A DNA stretch of 39,081 nucleotides from Polyangiaceae bacterium. Lineage in GTDB: Bacteria > Myxococcota_A > Polyangia > Polyangiales > Polyangiaceae. The position numbers and the translations under genes were made by a program. The notes beneath the pieces are model-generated. The model worked only from the letters and a program-made list of their open reading frames with translations. It did no database searches and was not told where the DNA came from. Location of the stretch: the NCBI GenBank assembly GCA_035762175.1, contig DASTPP010000105.1:1-39081 (forward strand), read 5' to 3'. Below, one piece after another: positions 558-27,261 of the stretch. The number at the start of each line of letters is the position of its first letter. The stretch's first letter is position 1.

Positions 558-993
558 CGCGAGCGCCACGACACCCGGATCAGGGCGGCCTGTCTTTGGC
601 GCGGGCGTCGGGCCGCCTGGGCTACGGCGACCTGGTGCTTTCGCGACGGCGCCAGGCCGCTCGGGTGCGGCAGCAGGCGTCGTTTTTTCGCGGGGGCCAG
701 CCGGCGCGGGTTTTGCTTACCAAGCCTCGCCGGCGGCCTCGCAAGCTGCCTGCGGAACCATGCTAAAAAACGTTCGGGTTCAAGTAGGGGTGTTTTTTTG
801 AACCCGCCCTTTGCGCGTCATGTCGCTCGGGCGGGGGTATTTTTTCACCCGCCGTCGGCGATCGAGCTCATGGTCCTTGGCCCGTTGAGAACGTCCTGGT
901 GAGCTTGCAAGCTCGAGCAGGGGTGTTTCTGCGGCCATGTCGGGTGCTCTCGGCCTTGAGTGTGGGTATGCACGTCGTGTACCCTCGGCGGCC

Positions 994-2637
994 ATGAGAG
1001 GCGTCGTTTTGCATCGTCGCGCCCTCGGGTGGCTTGCCTTGAGCTTGGCGGCGGTCGCTTGCCAAGAGGCAGAAGAAGACGTGGCGCCGGTCGAGGCGCC
1101 GCTTTGCACCGGCGAGGTCTCGCCGGGGCCCGCGCCGACGCGACGCCTCACCCGCTGGGAGTACAACAACACCGTCCGCGACCTGCTCGGCGACGAGACG
1201 CGCCCCGCCGACGCGTTCCCGGCCGACGAAGAGGCCCTCGGGTTTTCGAACAACGCGCTCGCCCTGACGACCTCGTCGACGCTGGTGCAGTCGTACATGC
1301 TGGCGTCCGAGGGGCTGTCCGAGCGGGCGACCGCGTCGCTGCCCGCGCTGCTGGGCTGCGACCCGGCGGCGGGCGAGGCCTGCGTCAAGCCCTTCGTCGC
1401 GTCGTTCGGGCGGCGGGCCTTCCGGCGGCCGCTCGCCGGCGACGAGGTCGAGGGCCTTCTCGGGCTCTACCGCGCGGCGAGCGCGGCGGGCGGGCCGCGC
1501 GAAGGGGTGCGCCAGATCATCGAGGCGATGCTCCAGTCGCCGCCCTTCCTCTATCGCCTCGAGCTCGAGGCGGCGCCCGAGGCCGGGGCGACCTCGCAGC
1601 CGCTCGGCCCCTGGCAGCTCGCCTCGCGGCTCTCGTACTTTCTGTGGGGCTCGATGCCCGACGACGAGCTCTTCGCCGCCGCCGACGCGGGGCGGCTCGG
1701 CACCCCCGACGAGGTGGCGGCGCAGGCGCGCCGCATGCTGGCCGACCCGAAGGCGCGCGAGCTGGTCCTGCGCTTCCACGAAGAGTGGCTCGACTACGAC
1801 CGCGTGCTCAGCGTCGGCCGGGGCAAGAGCGCGCAGTACTTCCCCGGCTGGGCGCCCGAGTACGCGCCGCTCATGCTCGAGGAGGCCCGCGCCTTCGTCG
1901 GGCACGTCGTCTTCGACGACCCGGCGGGCGACCTCGCGACGCTCTTGACCGCGCCCTACACCTTCGTCAACGGGCCGCTCGGCGCCTTCTACGGCTTCGA
2001 GGGCGCGCCCGCGGGCGAGGCCTTCGCGCGCGTCGAGCCGGGCGGGCGCGCGGGCGTCCTGACGCTCGGCGCGCTGTTGGCCTTCCACGCGCACTCCGAC
2101 CAGACCTCGCCCGTGCACCGGGGCCAGATGGTGCGCGAGCGCCTGCTCTGCGACCCGGTGCCGCCGCCGCCGCCCGAGTTCGACATCACGGTGCCCAAGG
2201 TCGACTCGGGCGCCACCGCGCGCGAGCGCTTCCGCGCCCACTCGCAGCAGCGCGTCTGCGCGGGCTGCCACGCGCTGCTCGACCCCGTCGGCTTCGGCTT
2301 CGAGAACTTCGACGGCGTCGGGCGCTACCGCGAGCTCGAGGCCGACGGCACGCCCGTCGACGCCTCGGGCAAGCTCACCGCGACCGACGTCGACGGCGAC
2401 TTCGTGGGCGTGCCCGCGCTCGCCGCCGCCCTCGCCCGGAGCGACCAGGTGCGAGGCTGTTACGTCACGCAGTGGTTCCGCTTCGCGCAGGGGCGCGCCG
2501 AGACCGAGCAAGACCGCTGCTCGCTCGAGGCGCTGCGCTCGGCCTTCGACGCCGCCGGCGGCAACGTCCGCGAGCTGCTCGTCTCGATGACCCAGACCGA
2601 CGCCTTCCTCTTCCGCCCGGCCGGGGGCGCGCCGTGA
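994..2637 (+). CDS. DUF1592/DUF1588/DUF1587-family (PSD1-like) lipoprotein
   Basis: ATG at 994 gives 'MRGVVLHRRALGWLALSLAAVAC', a lipoprotein signal with lipobox. Conserved blocks typical of the DUF1592/1588/1585 family are present: 'RLTRWEYNNTVRDLLG', 'FHEEWLDYDRV', 'CAGCHALLDPVGFGFENFDGVGRYR'. The family usually pairs with DUF1552. The stop overlaps the next gene start (GTGA). Confidence 0.75.
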   Translation: MRGVVLHRRALGWLALSLAAVACQEAEEDVAPVEAPLCTGEVSPGPAPTRRLTRWEYNNTVRDLLGDETRPADAFPADEEALGFSNNALALTTSSTLVQSYMLASEGLSERATASLPALLGCDPAAGEACVKPFVASFGRRAFRRPLAGDEVEGLLGLYRAASAAGGPREGVRQIIEAMLQSPPFLYRLELEAAPEAGATSQPLGPWQLASRLSYFLWGSMPDDELFAAADAGRLGTPDEVAAQARRMLADPKARELVLRFHEEWLDYDRVLSVGRGKSAQYFPGWAPEYAPLMLEEARAFVGHVVFDDPAGDLATLLTAPYTFVNGPLGAFYGFEGAPAGEAFARVEPGGRAGVLTLGALLAFHAHSDQTSPVHRGQMVRERLLCDPVPPPPPEFDITVPKVDSGATARERFRAHSQQRVCAGCHALLDPVGFGFENFDGVGRYRELEADGTPVDASGKLTATDVDGDFVGVPALAAALARSDQVRGCYVTQWFRFAQGRAETEQDRCSLEALRSAFDAAGGNVRELLVSMTQTDAFLFRPAGGAP

Positions 2638-4019
2638 GCCGCCCCCGCCTGCCCCGCCGCGCCCTCCTGCGGGGCGCCGGCGGCGTGCTCGTCTCGCTGC
2701 CGCTCTTCGAGAGCCTCGGCTGCGACGGCCGGCGGGGCCCGGCCCCGGGCGCCTCCAGGTCGCGCCTCGCCTTCCCCAAGCGCTTCATCGTCGTCTACAC
2801 GCCGAACGGCCAGTACGAGCCGCCCCCGACGCTCGACTTCGCCGGCACCACGTTCGAGCCGCTCGCGCCCTTCGTCCCGAAGCTCAACCTGGTGCGCGGG
2901 CTCGACATGTCGGTGCACGACGAGCCGCCCGGCGAGCCGCACCAGCAGGGCATGGCCTTCCTGACGGGGCGGCGGCTCAACGAGGGCACCTTCCTCGGCA
3001 GCGACTCGGCCTCGTACGCGGGCTGGGCGAGCGGCATCTCGGTCGACCAGGAGGTCGCCAAGGTGCTCTGCGTCGACACCCCCTACCGCTCGCTGCACCT
3101 CGGCGTCCAGTCGACGCTCTACGCCGGCACCGAGGTGCGCACCATCATCAGCTACGCCGGCTCCGACCAGCCCATCGCCAACGAGACGAGCCCCTTCGCC
3201 GTCTTCGACCGCATGTTCGCCCCCCTCGGCCCCGACGGCTCCGTCTCGGCCGAGCTGCGCGCGCGCCGCAAGTCGGTGCTCGACGTCGTCGGCAGGCAGT
3301 ACGAGTCGGTCAACGCCCGCCTCGGCGCCGCCGACCGGCAGAAGCTCGAGCAGCACCTCGCCTCCATCCGCGACGTCGAGGGGCGGCTGAGCCGGCAGGG
3401 CTCCTTCGTCGCCGCGGGCTGCAAGCGGCCCGAGCTGGGCGAGCCCGCCTTCGACCTGAACGATCCGGCCAATTTTCCCCTCATCGGCAAGCTGCAGACC
3501 GACCTGCTCGTCATGGCGCTCGCGTGCGATTTGACGCGCGTCGCCACCTTGCAGTGGTCCTCGTCGGCCAACAACCGGCCCTTCCCCTTCCTGAGCTACA
3601 ACGGCCAGCCCATCACCGGCGACGACCACCTGATGGGCCACTCGCCCGACTCGGACGTCGAGACCTGGGGCAAGCTCCGGGTCATCCGCCGCTGGTACCT
3701 CGAGCAGTTCGCCTACCTCCTGCGCAGCCTCGACTCCATCCAAGAGAGCGACGGCTCGACGATGCTCGACAACACCGCCGTCCTGCTCGGCAGCGAGCTC
3801 AGCCGCGGCAATACCCATAGCCACTCGAACATGAACTTCGTGCTGGCCGGCGGCGCCGCCGGCGCCTGGCGGACGGGCCGCTACCTCAACTACGAGGGCG
3901 TCGTGCCGCACAACAACCTGCTCGTCTCGATCCTCAACGGCATGGGCGTCGAGGGCACGACCTTCGGCGACCCCACCTACTGCACCGGGCCCCTCGCCGA
4001 ACTCACCCCGACGGGCTAG
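2634..4019 (+). CDS. DUF1552-domain protein with Tat-type signal
   Basis: GTG at 2634 overlaps the upstream stop, indicating translational coupling. The N-terminus 'VSRPRLPRRALLRGAGGVLVSLPLF' looks like a twin-arginine signal. The body ('FIVVYTPNGQ', 'WSSSANNRPFPF', 'GHSPDSD', 'THSHSNMNFVLAGG') matches the DUF1552 family that partners DUF1592 proteins. Confidence 0.75.
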   Translation: MSRPRLPRRALLRGAGGVLVSLPLFESLGCDGRRGPAPGASRSRLAFPKRFIVVYTPNGQYEPPPTLDFAGTTFEPLAPFVPKLNLVRGLDMSVHDEPPGEPHQQGMAFLTGRRLNEGTFLGSDSASYAGWASGISVDQEVAKVLCVDTPYRSLHLGVQSTLYAGTEVRTIISYAGSDQPIANETSPFAVFDRMFAPLGPDGSVSAELRARRKSVLDVVGRQYESVNARLGAADRQKLEQHLASIRDVEGRLSRQGSFVAAGCKRPELGEPAFDLNDPANFPLIGKLQTDLLVMALACDLTRVATLQWSSSANNRPFPFLSYNGQPITGDDHLMGHSPDSDVETWGKLRVIRRWYLEQFAYLLRSLDSIQESDGSTMLDNTAVLLGSELSRGNTHSHSNMNFVLAGGAAGAWRTGRYLNYEGVVPHNNLLVSILNGMGVEGTTFGDPTYCTGPLAELTPTG

Positions 4020-4140
4020 CGCGCCCGCCCGGCGCCGGGGCGGGGCCGCAGGCGGCGTTTTTTCGCTGCGGCCTACCTGGCAGTCGGCCTCGCTCCAAAG
4101 CCTCGCCTTCGGCCCCGCCCCGGCGCCGGGCGGGCGCGCG
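4019..4140. terminator. Bidirectional terminator-like inverted repeat between convergent genes
   Basis: A 28-bp perfect inverted repeat 'gcgcgcccgcccggcgccggggcggggcc' (4019-4047) and 'ggccccgccccggcgccgggcgggcgcgc' (4111-4139) encloses a nested hairpin 'ccgcaggcggcgttttttcgctgcgg' with a T6 run. It lies between the 3' ends of the DUF1552 gene (+) and the radical SAM gene (-). Confidence 0.45.
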
Positions 4141-4145
4141 AGCGA

Positions 4146-5195
4146 TTACGATCGGCCCGGGGGGTCGAAGAGCGAGAGCTGGGCGCCGGCCGGCGGCGGG
4201 CGCCGGAAGGTGCTCGGGGCGTCGCCCCCGTCGGGAAAGTGCGTGGGCAGGCCGAGGCGCCGGGCGTGGGCCTCGAAGAGCGCGTGCAGCGCCTCGACGT
4301 AGTGCCCCTCGCCCCGCATGCGCGCGCCGAAGCGGGGGTCGTTGAGGCGGCCGCCGCGCGCCTCGCGCACGCGGGCGAGCACGCGCTTCGAGCGCAGGGG
4401 CAGGGCGCGCTCGAGCCGCGCCGTGAACACCTCGCGGGTCGAGCCCGGCAGCCGCAAGAGGCCCCGGCAGGCCCAGCGCGCGCCCGCGTCGCGCGCCGCC
4501 TCGAGCAGCGGGCCGAGGTCTTCGTCGTTCAGCCCGGGGATGATGGGCGCGACCATCACGCCGACCGGCAGGCCCGCCGCCGCGAGCCGCGCGACCGCCT
4601 TGAGGCGCCGCGCCGGAGTCGGCACGTGGGGCTCGATCGCGCGCGCCTTCGCCTCGTCGAAGAAGGGCACGCTGACGGCCACCGCGACCCGCGCCTCGCG
4701 GTGCAGGCGCGCGAGCAGGTCGAGGTCGCGCTCGACGAGCGCGCCCTTGGTGATGACGCAGACGGGGTTCCGGAACTCGGCGCACACCTCGAGGCAGCCC
4801 CGCGTCAGCCGGTACGACGCCTCGAGCGGCTGGTAGCAGTCGGTCACGCCGCTGAAGGCGATGGGCTCGCCCCCCCACGAGGGCGCGAGCAGCGCCGCGC
4901 GCAGGAGCTCGGGCGCCCGCGGCTTGACGACGAGCTTCGTCTCGAAGTCGGTGCCGGCGCCGTAGCCGAGGTGCTCGTGGCCGGGGCGGGCGTAGCAGTA
5001 GGCGCAGGCGTGAAAACAGCCCCGGTACGGGTTCACGCTCCACCGGAAGCCGACGTCGGGGCTTTCGTTTTTCGTCAGAATCGTGCGGCTGTGGTCTTCG
5101 TAGACCTCGGGCGCCGCCGCGGGGGGCTCGCCGAGGTACTCGACGCTCGAAGAGAGCCAGGGGTTGGGCGGGTTTTCGGCCGGGGGCAGGGGCAT
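4146..5195 (-). CDS. Radical SAM protein, spore-photoproduct-lyase-like / DNA-repair photolyase family (COG1533-like)
   Basis: Contains the CxxxCxxC radical SAM cluster motif 'CFHACAYCYAR'. Overall pattern ('FETKLVVK', 'GVTDCYQP', 'VCVITKGALVERDLDLL') resembles the SplB-like radical SAM family. Good GC3. Confidence 0.7.
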   Translation of the reverse strand: MPLPPAENPPNPWLSSSVEYLGEPPAAAPEVYEDHSRTILTKNESPDVGFRWSVNPYRGCFHACAYCYARPGHEHLGYGAGTDFETKLVVKPRAPELLRAALLAPSWGGEPIAFSGVTDCYQPLEASYRLTRGCLEVCAEFRNPVCVITKGALVERDLDLLARLHREARVAVAVSVPFFDEAKARAIEPHVPTPARRLKAVARLAAAGLPVGVMVAPIIPGLNDEDLGPLLEAARDAGARWACRGLLRLPGSTREVFTARLERALPLRSKRVLARVREARGGRLNDPRFGARMRGEGHYVEALHALFEAHARRLGLPTHFPDGGDAPSTFRRPPPAGAQLSLFDPPGRS

Positions 5196-7502: not shown

Positions 7503-8111
7503 TCAGATCTCGCCGAAGAGGTCTTTCATGCGCGACTCGAGCGCGACGGCGATCTTGTACAGGCTGGGGATGGACGCCGACGACTCGGCCCGCTCGATCT
7601 GCGAGAGCAGCGAGACCGAGAGGCCCGTGCGCTTGCTCATCTGCTTGAGCGTGAGCGAGCGCTCTTTGCGAAGGTTGCGGATGGTGTCGCCGATGATGCG
7701 GTGCAGCTCTTCCTCGGGCGTGCGCGAGAAGCCCTTGCGCTTCATCACCCGGCTGATGGCCTCGCGCAGCTCTTCGACCTGGAAGGGCTTCTTGATGTAG
7801 TCGACCGCGTCGAGCTGCATGCCCGCCACCGCCGACTCGAGGTTCGGGTAGCCGGTGAAGAGAATGACGGCGATGTCCGAGTCTTGCTTGCGGATGGTGC
7901 GCAAGAGCGAGATGCCGTCGATTTCCGGCATCATGACGTCCAAGATGACGAGGTGGTAGTCTTCGCGGCGCAGCTCCTCCTCGGCCTTGCGCGGGTCGGT
8001 GAGGGTCTGGACGACGAAGCCGTCTTTGTCGAGCAGGGTCTTGACGTATTCGCAGATGGCTTCGTCGTCGTCGATCACGAGTATCCGCAGCGAGGGCATC
8101 TGGACGGGCAT
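7503..8111 (-). CDS. Response regulator with REC receiver domain and C-terminal XRE-family HTH DNA-binding domain
   Basis: 'LRILVIDDDEAICEYV...HLVILDVMMPEIDGISLL...AVILFTGY...YIKKPF' is a canonical receiver domain with the phospho-acceptor Asp. The C-terminal 'LRKERSLTLKQMSKRTGLSVSLLSQIERAE' is an XRE/Cro-like HTH. The ORF runs to 8147 (GTG). In-frame ATGs at about 8111 and 8099 are more likely starts. Transcribed divergently from cheA. Confidence 0.8.
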   Translation of the reverse strand: MPVQMPSLRILVIDDDEAICEYVKTLLDKDGFVVQTLTDPRKAEEELRREDYHLVILDVMMPEIDGISLLRTIRKQDSDIAVILFTGYPNLESAVAGMQLDAVDYIKKPFQVEELREAISRVMKRKGFSRTPEEELHRIIGDTIRNLRKERSLTLKQMSKRTGLSVSLLSQIERAESSASIPSLYKIAVALESRMKDLFGEI

Positions 8112-23041: not shown

Positions 23042-23062
23042 GGGCCGCGGGGCGACCAGGGG

Positions 23063-23244
23063 GTGAGGCGGGCGAGGCGGGCGAGCGGGGCGAGGGGGGC
23101 GAGGCGGGCGAGGGGGGCGACGCCGCGGCGGACGGTCCGGCCGAGCGGGTGCTCCCGCCGGGCCGTCCCCTGCGCGCGTCACGTCCGTCCCGGGCCCCGA
23201 TGGCCGGGTAGCGCGAAGAGGGCCGTCCCCTGCGCGCGTCACGT
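23063..23244. repeat. Intergenic repeats: about 7 copies of a 9-bp 'ggcgaggcg/ggg' unit, then a 25-bp direct repeat x2
   Basis: 'gggccgtcccctgcgcgcgtcacgt' occurs at about 23160-23184 and 23220-23244, 60 bp apart, upstream of the SGL lipoprotein gene. It is preceded by '(ggcgaggcg)n' at 23063-23128. Confidence 0.6.
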
Positions 23245-23322
23245 TCGAGCGGCCGGGCGGGCGACGCCCCCCGGGTGGCGCGCCGGGGCGCCGTCGCGCG
23301 CGCCGTGGTAGCGTGCGGGTCG

Positions 23323-24612
23323 ATGGCGGCTGGCTTGCGGTTTCGGGCCCTCGGGGCCCTCGTGATGGGCTGGGCCGCGGGGTGCGGCGGCGCCGAGGCG
23401 CCGCGGCCCGCGCGCTCGACGCCGGCGCCCGCGGGGTCGCCGGTGGCCGCGGCGGGGCAACCGAAGGCCGACCCTTGGCTCGCGACGTTCCGAGAGCGGG
23501 CGCGGCGCGACCCGAACGACGGGGCGGTTCTTTACAACGTGGCGGCGCTCGCCGACCAGGCCGGGGCGGCCGACGAGGCGCTCGGGTGGCTGCGGCGACT
23601 CGACGCCATCGGGTGGTCCATTCCGCCCGACGAGCGCGACTTTGCGACCCTGCGGGCCCGGCCCGAGTACCGAACGCTCGCCGCCTCGTTCGCCGCGCGC
23701 GCGCCCCGCGTGCAGAGCGGCCGCGTCGCCTTCACCGTGCCGGAGCCCGACCTCATCCCCGAGGGCATCGCGTACGACGAGCGGGGCGGGGCGTTCTTTC
23801 TGAGCAGCATCGCCAAGCGGAAGATCGTGCGGGTCGACGCGCGGGGGCGGGCGTCCGACTTCGTGCCCTCGGGCCGGGGGGGGCTCGGCGCCACGCTCGG
23901 CATGTACGTCGACCCGGGGCGGCGCCTGCTCTGGGCGGTCAGCATGCCGCGGCCGGGCCGGGGGGTCGGGGGCGAGCGGGCGCTCTATGGCTTCGACCTC
24001 GAGACGGGCGAGCAGCGCTACAAGCTCGTGCCGACCCCCGACGTCGAAGGCGACCGGCTGATCAACGACGTCACGGTGGGCCCGCGGGGCGAGCTCTACG
24101 TGACCGACAGCAACGCCGGGGCGCTCTTCGTCGCCGAGGGGCCCGAGGGGCCGCTGCGCCCGCTCTTCGGGCCGGGCACCTTCAACGGGCCGAACGGGCT
24201 CGCCTTCTTCGGGGAGGCGGGCGTGCTGCTGGTGGCGCACTCGGTGGGGGTCGCGGCCGTCGACCCCGCGGCGCGGACGTTCCGCGAGGTGGGCCGGGGG
24301 CCGGCCGAGGCGATCGGGGGCTTCGACGGCATGGCGCTGCGGGGCCGCACCCTGCTGGGCGTGCAGAACGCGCTCGGGGCGCCGCGCGTCGTGCGGGCCG
24401 AGCTCGACGCGCGGGCCTCGGCGGTCGTCTCGTTCCGGGTGCTCGAGGCGTCGAGCCCGGCGCTCGAGCTGCCGACGACGGGGGCGGTGGCGGGCGAGGT
24501 CTTCTACGTCATCGCCAACAGCCAGCTCCGGGCGATGGGCCCCGACGGGCGCCCGCGCGAGGGCGTCACGCTGCGCGACCCGACGGTGCTCGCGCTGCCG
24601 CTGGGCGGCTGA
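23323..24612 (+). CDS. Secreted lipoprotein with SMP-30/gluconolactonase/LRE-like (beta-propeller) region
   Basis: ATG at 23323 gives 'MAAGLRFRALGALVMGWAAGC', a lipobox. The body has beta-propeller-like repeats ('PEGIAYDERGGAFFLSS', 'NDVTVGPRGELYVTDSNAGALFV', 'FNGPNGLAF'). Confidence 0.55.
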   Translation: MAAGLRFRALGALVMGWAAGCGGAEAPRPARSTPAPAGSPVAAAGQPKADPWLATFRERARRDPNDGAVLYNVAALADQAGAADEALGWLRRLDAIGWSIPPDERDFATLRARPEYRTLAASFAARAPRVQSGRVAFTVPEPDLIPEGIAYDERGGAFFLSSIAKRKIVRVDARGRASDFVPSGRGGLGATLGMYVDPGRRLLWAVSMPRPGRGVGGERALYGFDLETGEQRYKLVPTPDVEGDRLINDVTVGPRGELYVTDSNAGALFVAEGPEGPLRPLFGPGTFNGPNGLAFFGEAGVLLVAHSVGVAAVDPAARTFREVGRGPAEAIGGFDGMALRGRTLLGVQNALGAPRVVRAELDARASAVVSFRVLEASSPALELPTTGAVAGEVFYVIANSQLRAMGPDGRPREGVTLRDPTVLALPLGG

Positions 24613-24622
24613 GGGCCGGGGC

Positions 24623-25162
24623 ATGAAGGTCGCACCCTTCGGCCTGCCGCGCGACGAGATCCGGCGCGAGCTCGAGGCGCTGCGCCACCCCTTCTCGGTC
24701 GCGATCGAGCGGGCGAAGAACCCGTTCAACATCGGGGCGATCGTGCGCACGGCGCACTCGTTCCTGGCGAAAGAGATCGTGCTGGTCGGCTCCGAGCCCT
24801 GGTACGAGCGGGCGGCGATGGGGATGCACCGCTACGAGACGCTGGTCGAGCTGCCCGACGCGGCCGCGCTCGTCGCGCGGGCGCGGGCGCAGGGGCAGCG
24901 GCTCGTGGTCTTCGAGCGCGAGGCGGCGCGGGTCGGGCTCTGGGAGGCCGAGCTGCCGGACGGCGCCGTGCTCGTCTTCGGCAGCGAGGACGCGGGCGTG
25001 TCGGCCGAGCTCGTGGCGGCGGCCGACGAGGTGGTGGCCATTCCGATGTTCGGTATCAACAACTCGTATCCGGTAACGGTGGCGGCGGGCATCGCGATGG
25101 CCGAGTGGGCGCGGCGGCGCTACGGCGGCGGGCGCCTGGTGCCGGCGGCGCCGGGCGGCTGA
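24623..25162 (+). CDS. SpoU/TrmH-family RNA 2'-O-methyltransferase
   Basis: SPOUT motifs 'NPFNIGAIVRTAHSF', 'LVFGSEDAGVS' and 'IPMFGINNSYPVTVAAGIAM'. 179 aa. Confidence 0.8.
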   Translation: MKVAPFGLPRDEIRRELEALRHPFSVAIERAKNPFNIGAIVRTAHSFLAKEIVLVGSEPWYERAAMGMHRYETLVELPDAAALVARARAQGQRLVVFEREAARVGLWEAELPDGAVLVFGSEDAGVSAELVAAADEVVAIPMFGINNSYPVTVAAGIAMAEWARRRYGGGRLVPAAPGG

Positions 25163-25190
25163 CCCGGCGCTCAGTTCGGGCCGAAGGCGG

Positions 25191-25432
25191 CCGGCGGCCC
25201 CGGACTCGACGTCCGGGGCACGGGCTCGCCCGCTCGAACGGAGGGCAAAGCCCGGCCGCCGTTGGGGCCGGGCGCGCTCGCCGCGAGCCGCTTCGCGCGC
25301 TCGCCCGGCAAGCCAAAGCCCGCGGGAGTCCGGCCCCCGCGAGGGCCGGACTTGGCGGGCCGGCACGGTGCCGAAGCCGCGCGGCACGACGTGGGTACGC
25401 CGTGCCCCGGACGTCGAGTCCGGGGCCGCCGG
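25191..25432. mobile_element. MITE-like element: 33-bp perfect terminal inverted repeats flanking a 176-bp core, bracketed by 24-bp direct repeats
   Basis: Left TIR 'ccggcggccccggactcgacgtccggggcacgg' (25191-25223) is the exact reverse complement of 25400-25432. Immediately outside are direct repeats 'gcgctcagttCgggccgaaggcgg' (25167-25190) and 'gcgctcagttGgggccgaaggcgg' (25433-25456). The right-hand copy encodes the last codons and stop of the 589-aa gene, so the left-hand copy is a displaced duplicate of that gene terminus, as a target-site duplication would be. Confidence 0.55.
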
Positions 25433-25436
25433 GCGC

Positions 25437-27206
25437 TCAGTTGGGGCCGAAGGCGGGGGGCGAGGCGGCGGCGGACTCTTCGCCGACGGCGTCGAGCAGC
25501 TCGCAGGCGAGGGCGCCGACCTCGACGTCTTCGTCTTCTTCGGCGACGCGCTCGATGAGCTCGAGGGCGCCCGGCCAGCTCGCGCCGCTCAGCGACATCA
25601 GGGCGATCTTTCGCAGCTCGGGCTCGGGGTGGGCGAGGGCGCGCTCGAAGGCGTCGCGCCACTCGGCGCCGGGCTCGGGGGGGCTGCTGGCGCCGAGGGC
25701 GGCGATGGCGAAGGCGGTCTCGGCGTAGGTGCCCGCGTCGGCGAGCATGGCGAGCAGGGTGCGGGGGCCGAGCAGCGGCAGCGCGGGGCGCAAGGCGTTG
25801 GCGAAGGCGGCGGGGTCGGGGCCCTCGAAGCGCAGGAGGGCGACGCCGAGGACGGGGTCTTCTTGGTAGCGGATGAAGTGCGTGTTGGCCTCGTCGCTGA
25901 AGGCGAGCTCGTAGCGCTTGTCGCCCTCGGCGTCGCCGGAGGCGGAGAGCCAGAGCCAGCGCCGCTCGCGGGCGACGGCCTTGACCTCTTCGCGCGTGAC
26001 GTCGGAGGCGAGGGCGACCGAGAGCGGGCCGCGCGCGGGCGCCTCGAAGGGCGGGGCGGGGTCGTCTTCGCCGGCGAGGCGGCGGCGCAGGAAGGGGTCG
26101 CCCTCGGCGCGGGTGCGGTGCGGCTCGAGCGGCTCGCCGCGCCAGCGGGCGACGGCGACGGCGAGGCGGCGCACGCGCGCGTCGGGGTGGGCGAGGGCCT
26201 GGGCGAGCGCGCCGGCGAGCGGGGGGCCGCCGAGGGTGCCGAGCACGTAGAGCGGGAAGGCGACGTGCAGCGGGTGCGGCGGCGGCTCGCCGGGCTCGTT
26301 CAAGAGCTCGGCGAGCACCTGGGCGGCCGAGGCGGGGCCGAAGGGGGCGAGGGCGGCGACGACGTCGAGGGGCAGGTCGTCGGGGTAGTCGGCGCCGACG
26401 ACTTCGTTCCACCGGCGGAGGGCGGCGGCGGCGGCGCGCACGGGCCGGTAGCGGACCTCGACGACGAGGTGGTCGCCGTGGGCCTCGGCGCGCAGGACCG
26501 ACTTCGACAGGCGCGTGCGCACCGAGACGACGGGCAGCTCGCCGGGCATCTGGGCCATCGCCTCTTGGCGGCGCAAGAGGTAGGCGAGCGCGCCCTCGGG
26601 CCGCGCCATGGACTCGGCGAAGGGCTCGTCGAGGTAGGGGTCGCCCGGGCTCGAGGTGCCCCAGGAGAGGCCGTCGCAGAAGGGGTCGGTCGCGAAGTGC
26701 CGCTCGAAGTGCGCGAGCCCGGCGCCGTCGTCGCGGCCGGCGAAGAGGCGCAGCCGCCCCGGCAGCCCGGCCTCGGGCTCGGCCCGGGGCACCAGGTGCT
26801 CGTCGAGCGAGCGGCGGACGCGCTCGGCCGTCGCGCCGGCGTCGACCCAGAGCAGCGGCGAGAGCGTGTCGGAGAGCGCGAGCCAGAGCCGGTCGGGCGC
26901 GTCGGTGTTGACGAGCCAGAGCGGCGTCGCCGAAGGCGGCCGGAGCGGCCCGCGCTCGCTGCCGCCGACCCAGCGCCCGCGGTACGGCACGGGCGGGCCC
27001 TCGGCGACGGGCCAGAAGCAGGCGAGGCGGGCGCGCACGACGGCCTCGACGTCGGGGCGCAGCCCCTCGCCGAGCAGCGGCCCCTTCGGGTCGCGCAGCA
27101 CGTTCAGGCGCGCCTGGGCCTCGGCGGCCGACAGCCAGCGCAGCGATCGGAGCGAGGGGTGCGAGCGCAGGGAGACGAGCCAGAGCGGAGGCGAGAACGA
27201 CAGCAT
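25437..27206 (-). CDS. Hypothetical protein, 589 aa (possible HEAT/ARM-like C-terminus)
   Basis: Long ORF with coherent codon bias and no recognisable catalytic motif: 'MLSFSPPLWLVSLRSHPSLRSL...HFIRYQEDPVLGVALLRFEGPD...'. Its C-terminal 'AFGPN*' is duplicated at the MITE-like element. Confidence 0.55.
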   Translation of the reverse strand: MLSFSPPLWLVSLRSHPSLRSLRWLSAAEAQARLNVLRDPKGPLLGEGLRPDVEAVVRARLACFWPVAEGPPVPYRGRWVGGSERGPLRPPSATPLWLVNTDAPDRLWLALSDTLSPLLWVDAGATAERVRRSLDEHLVPRAEPEAGLPGRLRLFAGRDDGAGLAHFERHFATDPFCDGLSWGTSSPGDPYLDEPFAESMARPEGALAYLLRRQEAMAQMPGELPVVSVRTRLSKSVLRAEAHGDHLVVEVRYRPVRAAAAALRRWNEVVGADYPDDLPLDVVAALAPFGPASAAQVLAELLNEPGEPPPHPLHVAFPLYVLGTLGGPPLAGALAQALAHPDARVRRLAVAVARWRGEPLEPHRTRAEGDPFLRRRLAGEDDPAPPFEAPARGPLSVALASDVTREEVKAVARERRWLWLSASGDAEGDKRYELAFSDEANTHFIRYQEDPVLGVALLRFEGPDPAAFANALRPALPLLGPRTLLAMLADAGTYAETAFAIAALGASSPPEPGAEWRDAFERALAHPEPELRKIALMSLSGASWPGALELIERVAEEDEDVEVGALACELLDAVGEESAAASPPAFGPN

Positions 27207-27261
27207 GAGGGGCCCTCGATCGTGCGCCCTTCGGCGCGCGGCGCAAGGCGAGCGCAGGGGC

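Follow-up and report, generated by a model that had tools for sequence, protein, structure and literature searches.

Introduction

REPINs, which are mobilised by RAYTs, leave no target duplication and have spacers of tens of nucleotides; their copies number from tens to hundreds, and a conserved tetranucleotide adjoins the stem. Retrons, known in myxobacteria, feature long a1/a2 inverted repeats, and for IS1630 (IS30 family, Mycoplasma), inverted repeats are described as the sequence that is targeted and duplicated. Prokaryotic MITEs are shorter than 500 bp, are bounded by terminal inverted repeats (TIRs) of about 4–30 bp and by direct repeats (DRs) that arise through target duplication, give stable stem-loop transcripts and lie in intergenic regions (PMC10969869). 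Longer target duplications are on record: those of IS1630 are cited as long and variable, at 19–26 bp (PMC2853133), and insertion with long target duplication (Furuta/Kobayashi) brings in gene-sized restriction-modification units that lack TIRs, with duplications of at least about 26 bp and a screen threshold of 30 bp (PMC2853133). Casposons duplicate 15 bp, with one 22-bp off-target casposase event, and TIR-only mini-elements are substrates (PMC5137440). Finally, the pneumococcal SPRITE repeats are small, dispersed hairpins resembling Rho-independent terminators and placed after genes (PMC10969869, PMC3049150). Our literature search found no described MITE or REP families in Myxococcota.

Here we analyse a locus that we read, with a probability of about one half, as the insertion site of a non-autonomous TIR element of MITE-like type, whose 24-bp duplication is unusually long and which would now provide terminator-like hairpins between convergent genes. 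It resembles MITEs in its size (242 bp), TIRs, target duplication, non-coding nature, intergenic position at a gene 3' end, strong stem-loop and presence/absence polymorphism, and differs from them in the 24-bp duplication (usually <10 bp), in TIRs of 33 bp that each form a hairpin and in being 81% GC and not AT-rich. The 24-bp duplication falls within the 19–26 bp of IS1630; however, the target at this locus shows no significant structure (fold z +1.2 and +0.2), no IS30-type transposase lies nearby, and host phylum and GC content are unrelated. As in insertion with long target duplication, the duplicate is single in the empty genome, such duplicates sometimes lie over a gene 3' end, and no mobility gene is present, whereas at this locus a non-coding, palindromic segment of 242 bp was inserted, with perfect TIRs and a 24-bp duplication (34 bp only at 88%). 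With casposons the locus shares a TIR-bounded insert and an atypically long duplication overlapping a gene 3' end, a pure analogy, given a duplication of 24 and not 15 bp, a protein-coding target and no Cas1 known for the lineage from these data. REPs and REPINs are likewise GC-rich hairpins of 20–25 nt, in inverted pairs between convergent genes and with the potential to terminate transcription or stabilise mRNA, but the element has a 24-bp duplication and a 176-nt spacer, the conserved tetranucleotide beside the stem is not seen in it, and searches of the window and of species genomes found no further copies. The small terminator-like hairpins after genes recall SPRITE; there is no sequence relation, and terminator function is suggested here only by hairpins plus TTTG and one consensus site.

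Direct and terminal inverted repeats between two convergent genes

The window, that is, the whole stretch of 39,081 nucleotides that was analysed, contains a SpoU/TrmH-family RNA methyltransferase gene of 179 aa (24623–25162, plus strand; Pfam SpoU_methylase, E 8e-25), homologs of which in Myxococcota MAGs carry the names tRNA G18 2'-O-methylase or TrmH. Its TGA stop (25160–25162) lies 4 nt ahead of the left DR. Convergent with it is a HEAT-repeat protein gene of 589 aa (25437–27206, minus strand; Pfam HEAT_2) with orthologs of 588–596 aa at 79–93% identity. Between the two genes, a DR (25167–25190), the 242-bp element (25191–25432) and a second DR (25433–25456) follow one another. This DR-TIR-core-TIR-DR geometry is exact and gapless, and none of it is expected by chance. 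A 691-aa ORF (25171–27246) that ends at the left-DR TGA was rejected as another frame through the HEAT gene, an artefact of 75% GC.

The left, SpoU-side DR (GCGCTCAGTTCGGGCCGAAGGCGG) and the right, HEAT-side DR (GCGCTCAGTTGGGGCCGAAGGCGG) share the 24-nt consensus GCGCTCAGTT[C/G]GGGCCGAAGGCGG, which gives two matches in the window and 0 in shuffles, and both copies abut the TIRs directly. The earlier note, made from the letters alone, had announced flanking 24-bp direct repeats; they are present, but as a match of 23/24 (C versus G at position 11) and not 24/24, and the left copy starts at 25167 and not at 25166. A weaker similarity reaches 34 nt at 88% identity (25163–25196 / 25429–25462), and in this extended form the DRs overlap the TIR ends by 4–6 nt. 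Each DR consists of 4 intergenic nt and the final 20 nt of the HEAT gene (the stop and 17 more). The right copy holds the functional stop, read as TCA at 25437–25439 on the plus strand, and the last codons of the 589-aa gene (..AFGPN*), as the same note had it, and its TCAGTTGGGGCCGAAGGCGG is identical in the closest relatives L042, L007 and L045. The left copy, displaced and now non-coding, still reads AFGPN* with one synonymous difference. The insertion struck the HEAT gene 3' end, which the duplication kept intact. Neither DR region folds better than shuffles (z +1.19 and +0.16), so a palindromic target of the IS1630 kind was rejected; the only palindrome is the 11-nt TTCGGGCCGAA of the left copy, which the ancestral-type right copy has in imperfect form. 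Other local 28-nt direct repeats (23160/23220 and 27704/27765) and tandem 9-mers occur in intergenic regions of the window.

The left TIR (25191–25223) and the right TIR (25400–25432) are perfect complements over 33 nt. Each arm forms a hairpin with a 9-bp stem, namely hairpin A (25197–25219, 5-nt loop) on the left and hairpin A' (25404–25426) on the right. A repeat search returned inverted arms of 37 nt with 1 mismatch (25187–25223 / 25400–25436), the perfect portion being 33 nt with 176 nt between, and a 28-nt piece of the TIR arm has exactly 2 occurrences in the window versus 0 in 100 shuffles; both TIRs and the core were thereby recovered where they had first been noticed.

Relatives lack the element

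The locus was compared with contigs of eight sequence-distinct, Myxococcota/Polyangiales-like relatives in which the HEAT gene is 83–96% identical at the nucleotide level. In seven of the eight, the gene-end sequence is single and the element is absent, as is seen in L007/L008, L009/L010, L012, L014, L042 and L045; the eighth, L013, lacks the element too, and its gene terminus is altered. Positions 7744–7779 of L009 align both to window 25458–25423 and to 25194–25159, and positions 1257–1293 of L045 align both to 25437 onwards and to 25171 onwards. Because these single stretches align to both DRs, a lineage-specific insertion with target duplication is indicated, the DR flanks being a duplication of sequence that is single in the empty site. 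These alignments bear out the earlier suggestion that the left DR is a displaced duplicate of the gene end. That suggestion predicted orthologous loci with one copy of the 24-bp sequence, as seen in the seven relatives; the contrary outcome, an identical element at all orthologs and no empty site, was not found, the element being absent from 8/8 relatives.

Even the closest relative, 95.8% identical in the adjacent gene, has no part of the core at its junction. The HEAT-SpoU spacer varies among lineages from 19 to about 150 bp and is alike only in L007 and L045, which suggests that this junction turns over by some process anyway.

A non-coding core rich in hairpins

The core (25224–25399) comprises 176 nt of 80% GC that fold into several hairpins in MFE predictions, and the 242-bp element as a whole is 81% GC. 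In all six frames, its GC content differs little between codon positions (0.77–0.84), whereas the flanking genes have GC3 of 0.96–0.97 and GC2 of about 0.5. Thus, the element is non-coding. The whole region folds much more stably than shuffles, with z = −6.3 on the plus strand and −5.6 on the minus strand. Internal dyads, anticipated in the earlier note, take the form of two stable hairpins at 25250–25273 and 25327–25352, in addition to the hairpin of each TIR arm. Hairpin B (GCCCGGCC..GGCCGGGC, 25250–25273, minus strand) is followed by TTTG on the minus strand. Hairpin D (25327–25352, 11-bp stem), together with an overlapping stem (25319–25343), occupies 25319–25352 of the minus strand, and CTTTGGCTTG follows the overlapping stem.

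Hairpins A, B and D are all stable, with T-runs of 3 nt only after them. A terminator scan found a sole site (25343–25319, minus strand, HEAT-gene sense), not significant at 1 found versus 0.4 expected in shuffles. Both terminator-like hairpins have the same orientation and inversion is confined to the TIRs, where an identical GC-rich hairpin sits 10 nt past the HEAT stop and 34 nt past the SpoU stop. A reading of the core as an inverted, REPIN-like doublet was rejected, its halves aligning only via hairpins B and D with a score of 12, near background. Rfam gave 0 matches in the window at the gathering score, and at E ≤ 10 the best match in the element region scored 16.8 bits against a 35-bit threshold. 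No promoter-like site was found in the scan of the element, and the core showed no similarity to neighbouring sequence or to the relatives' spacers.

Search for further copies

The 242-bp element has one copy within the 39-kb window. No second full copy was found in the window, in the relatives' loci or in genome, metagenome, viral, plasmid and phage collections, among which the source genome is not included; the relatives' loci, about 100 kb, yielded one partial homolog at another site. The exact TIR 24-mer (hairpin A plus one flanking base per side) has six matches in 185,579 species genomes. All six, from Actinomycetota and Krumholzibacteriia, are single hairpins with no second arm and were discarded as relatives; L001, the one that was inspected, turned out to be an ordinary terminator that follows a stop codon. 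The hairpin-B motif common to the window and L012 gave 0 matches in a metagenome scan that missed L012 itself, so that collection is incomplete for this lineage. When the motif was relaxed, 27 metagenome matches appeared, all of them generic AAAGCCCGGCC..GGCCGGGCTTT terminator hairpins with unrelated flanks. Hairpin B is thus not diagnostic by itself. Scans of viral contigs gave 0 matches and the plasmid collection none, and a phage match of 38 nt fell by chance inside Xanthomonas phage genes. When pseudo-proteins from all six frames were searched, no spurious ORFs lying over other copies came up at E ≤ 0.01. One frame searched with HMMER against 1.84 billion representatives returned a sole match, P0128, which is spurious, being a PRAME-like tandem repeat from eukaryotes with 31 matches to 'PPR..DLAGRH'. 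Among the part of the window ORFs that was screened, there was no integrase or Cas1 gene.

The partial homolog is a module of ~85 nt upstream of SpoU in the L012/L043/L044 lineage, built of hairpin B, a TTTG..CCGTT spacer of 29–30 nt and hairpin A. Its identity with the window is 31/37 in the best stretch, and its Smith-Waterman score of 22 compares with maxima of 16 in shuffles and 17.5 for the non-homologous stretches in a set of 1914 empirical windows. In hairpin A of the L012-lineage module, a G-C pair is swapped to C-G in compensatory fashion. The comparison involves two independent sequences only, and MAFFT places hairpin A one column off register. The L012-lineage homolog is partial, lies <700 bp from the same SpoU gene and owes its similarity partly to a generic hairpin motif. 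All three metagenome contigs (L012, L043 and L044) end inside the module, which is the only candidate relative of the element in the sequences searched.

Discussion

How would the element have reached this site? In the mechanism that we favour, a 242-bp element with 33-bp perfect TIRs would have entered the junction of two convergent genes in a Polyangiales-like myxobacterial lineage. A transposase or integrase would have acted in trans on the TIRs and cut the target with a 24-nt stagger, and fill-in of the staggered cut would have left the 24-bp duplication. Before insertion, the genes would have been only about 8 nt apart, the junction reading SpoU-TGA-CCCGGCGC-TCA-HEAT; the duplication left the HEAT gene with an intact end, and the copy next to SpoU is displaced and no longer codes. 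The event was probably recent because the DRs differ by 1 mismatch in 24 nt, the TIRs by 0 in 33 nt, and the closest relative, without the element, is 4% diverged. The insertion may be tolerated because it supplies an identical GC-rich hairpin 10 nt past the HEAT stop and 34 nt past the SpoU stop. The two terminator-like hairpins in HEAT sense could then serve as a transcription stop or insulator, or at least not disturb one.

In its size (242 bp, <500), its lack of coding capacity, its TIRs and its DRs that duplicate a single empty-site sequence, the locus matches a MITE. Of the MITE-like insertion first proposed, the insertion and target duplication are upheld by the empty sites; the MITE label itself is less secure, since it presupposes a family with several copies and preferably a parent IS, and the collections searched yielded neither. 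That the TIR arms resemble ordinary GC-rich terminator hairpins counts against the main reading. So does the 24-bp duplication, which is, as had been remarked at the outset, long for a target-site duplication and well beyond the usual <10 bp, and so does the fact that no transposase or integrase is known for the element.

A rival reading is a one-off capture: a hairpin-rich fragment, such as a terminator cassette from elsewhere, would have been ligated into a staggered break, and the TIRs would belong to the fragment itself without acting as recognition sites. Long, variable target duplications without mobility genes are documented, some overlapping a gene 3' end by 2–15 bp (PMC2853133); no other full copy and no partner IS were found in the collections searched, the TIR hairpin is of the generic terminator type, and the DR/TIR overlap of 4–6 nt at both junctions could be microhomology. 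We nevertheless hold capture to be a clearly less likely explanation, since the documented cases bear whole genes, with duplications above about 26–30 bp and no TIRs, since perfect 33-bp TIRs abutting the duplication exactly on both sides are the hallmark of end-recognising transposition, and since a related module stands at a second locus in another lineage. A purely local origin, with a convergent terminator or spacer evolving at the site and slippage or template switching doubling the gene terminus, would fit the lineage-to-lineage variation of the junction spacer (only L007 and L045 share a version), the other local 28-nt direct repeats and tandem 9-mers in intergenic regions, and the hairpins right after both stops with their one terminator-like site. 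It seems doubtful, because every relative lacks the core entirely at the junction, even at 95.8% adjacent-gene identity, a direct duplication around an inverted one needs at least two independent, precisely abutting events, and the terminator scan is not significant (1 versus 0.4 expected). The earlier note's alternative of a terminator born by local duplication is thus disfavoured, the 176-nt core being unlike neighbouring DNA or any relative's spacer.

Two further explanations give the repeats other roles. If the DRs were attL/attR cores, or remnants of them, an integrase- or casposase-type event at the HEAT 3' end could have supplied or regenerated the gene end. Integrases classically enter at a gene 3' end and regenerate it, the 15-bp duplication of casposons lies over a gene 3' end and TIR-only mini-casposons integrate in vitro (PMC5137440), and the DRs are not identical (23/24); but the ORFs screened, part of those in the window, include no integrase or Cas1, 242 bp is far under any known integrative element, and the candidate second copy lies at a different, unrelated site, against strict site specificity, all of which makes such an event improbable. 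Least credible is a structured non-coding RNA gene (an sRNA, a retron-like msr/msd or similar) flanked by repeats by happenstance. Its appeal lies in the great stability of the fold, seen on either strand (z about −6), and in long inverted repeats resembling retron a1/a2; yet no Rfam family rises beyond noise even at E ≤ 10, no reverse transcriptase adjoins, no promoter-like site was seen, no relative conserves it, and the symmetry of the fold on both strands fits DNA palindromy over directional RNA.

The MITE-like reading can be extended, though we regard the extension as unlikely: the element may be the first member of a GC-rich, hairpin-ended MITE family in Polyangia, moved by an IS1630-like or casposase-like enzyme that staggers its cuts by about 24 nt, and whose last-codon insertions would be harmless and left as ready-made terminators. 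The partial copy upstream of SpoU and the contig breaks would then mark other members. If this is a true mobile family, Myxococcota would gain a kind of MITE whose target duplication is unusually long, and an enzyme that cuts with a wide stagger would be implied. In practice, the locus shows how a gene 3' end can absorb an insertion without damage, and that convergent-gene junctions in these very GC-rich genomes turn over via hairpin elements, breaking metagenome assemblies. For now, it represents one insertion polymorphism, well documented and of modest general importance, ordinary to mildly unusual.

These genomes also contain another dispersed family of long hairpins, unrelated to the element (window 4015–4143 versus L045 300–432), which shows that the lineage has elements of this sort moving or turning over.

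An insertion with duplicated ends between the SpoU and HEAT genes

In the window, whose GC content is ~75% and uniform along its length, a SpoU/TrmH-family methyltransferase gene (24623-25162, + strand; Pfam SpoU_methylase, E 8e-25) converges with the gene for a 589-aa HEAT-repeat protein (25437-27206, − strand). The element and its direct repeats (DRs) lie between the two and overlap the gene region: a left DR (25167-25190), a left terminal inverted repeat (TIR, 25191-25223), a 176-nt core (25224-25399), a right TIR (25400-25432) and a right DR (25433-25456). This is the arrangement, and the place, that the earlier note had described, with minor corrections: the DRs are not identical but agree at 23/24 positions, position 11 being C in one copy and G in the other. 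Over 33 nt the TIRs match perfectly, and allowing one mismatch extends them to 37 nt; neither the TIR nor the DR repeats occurred in 100 dinucleotide shuffles. The right DR does contain the last codons and stop of the HEAT gene (..AFGPN*), and the left DR, claimed to be a duplicated gene terminus, can still be read as AFGPN*, its Pro codon being CCG where the right DR has CCC. Because the closest relatives (L042, L007 and L045) carry the right-copy version, the mutation lies in the non-coding left DR. A 691-aa ORF (25171-27246, − strand) runs in another frame through the whole HEAT gene and ends at the left-DR TGA; we rejected it as an artefact of the 75% GC, although gene-calling software could annotate it wrongly.

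We identified five close orthologs of the HEAT protein (79–93% identical; best match 93%); SpoU homologs are more numerous. Their source names are Myxococcota, Polyangiales or Sandaracinaceae-like bacteria, a placement with which the gene content of the window (DUF1552, Che system, Ser/Thr kinases, vault-protein homolog) agrees. We compared the junction in contigs of eight sequence-distinct relatives, the HEAT-gene part of which is 83–96% identical to the window at the nucleotide level. As predicted for orthologous empty sites, seven of the eight have one ...TTCGGCCC[C/G]AACTGA gene end and lack the element entirely. It is absent as well from the eighth, L013, but there the HEAT terminus is altered. 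Consistently, single BLASTN segments of relatives match both DR regions (L009 7744-7779 to window 25458-25423 and 25194-25159; L045 1257-1293 to window positions from 25437 and from 25171), and deleting the element with one DR leaves SpoU-TGA-CCCGGCGC-TCA-HEAT, with a spacer of 8 nt. These empty sites support reading the element as an insertion with target duplication. It is missing from the closest relative, L042 (95.8% identical across 788 nt of the HEAT gene), and the DRs and TIRs are near-identical, suggesting that the event was recent.

The HEAT-SpoU spacer itself varies in sequence and length by lineage while the flanking gene ends are conserved. Stop to stop it measures 19 bp in L009/L010, ~56 bp in L014, 63 bp in L007/L008 and 70 bp in both L042 and L045; it is ~150 bp in L013, and in L012, to whose lineage L043 belongs, ~95 bp separate the HEAT gene from the homologous SpoU stop. 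Only L007 and L045 have a spacer version in common. Thus, the junction is a turnover hotspot. In L013 the spacer holds a (GACGC)n tandem run and, with the HEAT stop lost, that ORF grows to 678 aa; a 1-nt indel in L012 shifts the frame, so that the called SpoU ORF extends to 217 aa and overlaps HEAT.

The element is non-coding and highly structured

GC by codon position is flat within the element in all six frames (0.77–0.84), in contrast to the flanking genes (GC3 0.96–0.97, GC2 ~0.5); the element is non-coding. Each TIR arm forms a hairpin with a 9-bp stem (GCCCCGGAC-n5-GTCCGGGGC, −20 kcal/mol; hairpin A), and the core bears out the internal dyads proposed for it, with additional stable hairpins at 25250-25273 (hairpin B) and 25327-25352. 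The whole region folds more stably than shuffles (z = −6.3 for the + strand, −5.6 for the − strand). That foldability is the one point in favor of an RNA gene, a highly improbable reading: Rfam gave no match at gathering scores in the window and noise alone at E ≤ 10 in the region. We found no promoter-like site in the element region and one terminator-like site (− strand, 25343-25319; 0.4 expected). With the element in place, both convergent mRNAs reach an identical hairpin A, 10 nt past the HEAT stop and 34 nt past the SpoU stop, and the minus strand presents two hairpins followed by GGGCTTTG. A role as terminator or insulator between the convergent genes is plausible; terminators carried by MITEs have been treated elsewhere (PMC10969869).

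A candidate partial copy in a related lineage

Is the element repeated elsewhere? A TIR 24-mer searched against species genomes, a set that like the other collections lacks the source genome, returned six unrelated single hairpins and no paired ones; one of them, L001, was considered as a relative and proved a plain terminator. Of two metagenome scans for element motifs, one gave no match and the other 27 generic terminator hairpins. Viral contigs, plasmids and phages gave no relevant match, nor did a six-frame pseudo-protein search over the element, and the sole match of an exhaustive one-frame HMMER search was spurious, a repeat protein. No second full copy exists in the window or in ~100 kb of the relatives' loci, and neither Rfam nor literature searches yielded a described family that matches.

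The sole positive lead is a candidate, partial second copy that adjoins the same SpoU gene, upstream, in the L012/L043/L044 lineage (three JGI samples). Its order and spacing are those of window minus strand 25273 to 25197: hairpin B (24 nt), a spacer of 29–30 nt starting TTTG..C.CCGTT, and hairpin A (22–23 nt), whose stem survives a double change from G-C to C-G. The best stretch is identical at 31/37 positions, with a Smith-Waterman score of 22, against at most 16 for dinucleotide shuffles and at most 17.5 for non-homologous stretches among 1914 empirical 135-nt windows of the same lineage; only orthologous gene-end (DR) matches exceeded 17.5. Hairpin B, which contributes to this similarity, is of a terminator type that is very common. 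All three independent metagenome contigs stop inside the module, as expected of a repeat or, alternatively, of a hard-to-sequence GC hairpin. The module sits in a stretch of additional non-coding DNA of 216 bp or more (L012 2700-2790; L043 1-110; L044 1-125); in other relatives SpoU begins ~15 bp downstream of the SGL/NHL gene.

Origin of the element

How did the element arise, given that the insertion, the duplication and an intact HEAT gene end are all observed? A transposon-type insertion is the most economical account. The element would have been linked through its two TIR ends to a target whose strands had been cut at a distance of 24 nt, and filling of the gaps would have duplicated those 24 bp. 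As the staggered cut spanned the final 20 nt of the HEAT gene, the end of that gene would have been regenerated and the insertion neutral. The enzyme, the 24-nt stagger and mobilization in trans are what such a model implies. Target duplications of such length are uncommon but on record, the usual length being <10 bp (PMC2853133): IS1630 makes duplications of 19–26 bp (cited in PMC2853133), and a casposase, which accepts TIR-only mini-elements, routinely produces 15 bp and on one occasion produced 22 bp (PMC5137440). Unlike the targets of IS1630, the 24-bp target here forms no significant hairpin. We class the element as a small, MITE-like TIR insertion whose duplication is atypically long; MITE status in the sense of a multi-copy, mobilizable family is plausible.

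One-off capture of a fragment with a long target duplication (PMC2853133) would agree with the failure to find further copies, yet it does not fit perfect TIRs that abut the duplication, and we regard it as unlikely. A terminator that evolved locally and was accompanied by duplication would suit the hypervariability of the spacer and the presence of other local repeats in the same genome; that history requires two events that abut precisely and lacks intermediates among the relatives examined, which makes it rather improbable. Still more doubtful is site-specific integration at the HEAT gene end: the candidate second copy lies at a different location, which speaks against it, and screening of window ORFs revealed no integrase.

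Other hairpins, repeats and polymorphisms

A 129-bp long hairpin (4015-4143; 47-nt arms, 89% complementary) exactly occupies the gap between the stops of a DUF1552 gene (960-4019, +) and a radical-SAM gene (4146-5195, −). The ~55-nt apex shares homology with a long hairpin at L045 300-432 (79% over 53 nt, E 7e-6), which directly follows a DndB-like gene, a non-orthologous position; the outer stems are unlike in sequence, yet each pairs. The L007/L008 contigs stop there. The two hairpins look like members of a second family of dispersed palindromic elements. Hairpin elements of these genomes thus do relocate or turn over, and the prior for mobility of the 242-bp element rises accordingly.

The SGL/NHL-repeat gene (window 23275-24612; L007 4139-5424) shows a presence/absence polymorphism: the window, L007, L009, L013 and L014 carry it between SpoU and the DndB-like gene, and it is missing entirely from L045, 93% identical to L007 in nucleotides. 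Intergenic local repeats occur at 23059-23124, 23160-23247 and 27576-27838, among them five or more tandem GGCGGGCGA-like 9-mers and a 28-nt direct repeat (copies 60 nt apart, 96% identical) recognizable too in L045 447-506. Upstream of the HEAT gene, another 28-nt direct repeat (27704/27765, 61 nt apart) lies amid many imperfect inverted repeats. Finally, an 854-aa protein (28636-31200, +) has the shoulder and repeat domains of the major vault protein (PF11978, E 2e-26) and adjoins a 162-aa ORF, an arrangement conserved in L009, L014 and L010; it is thus a bacterial vault-protein homolog.
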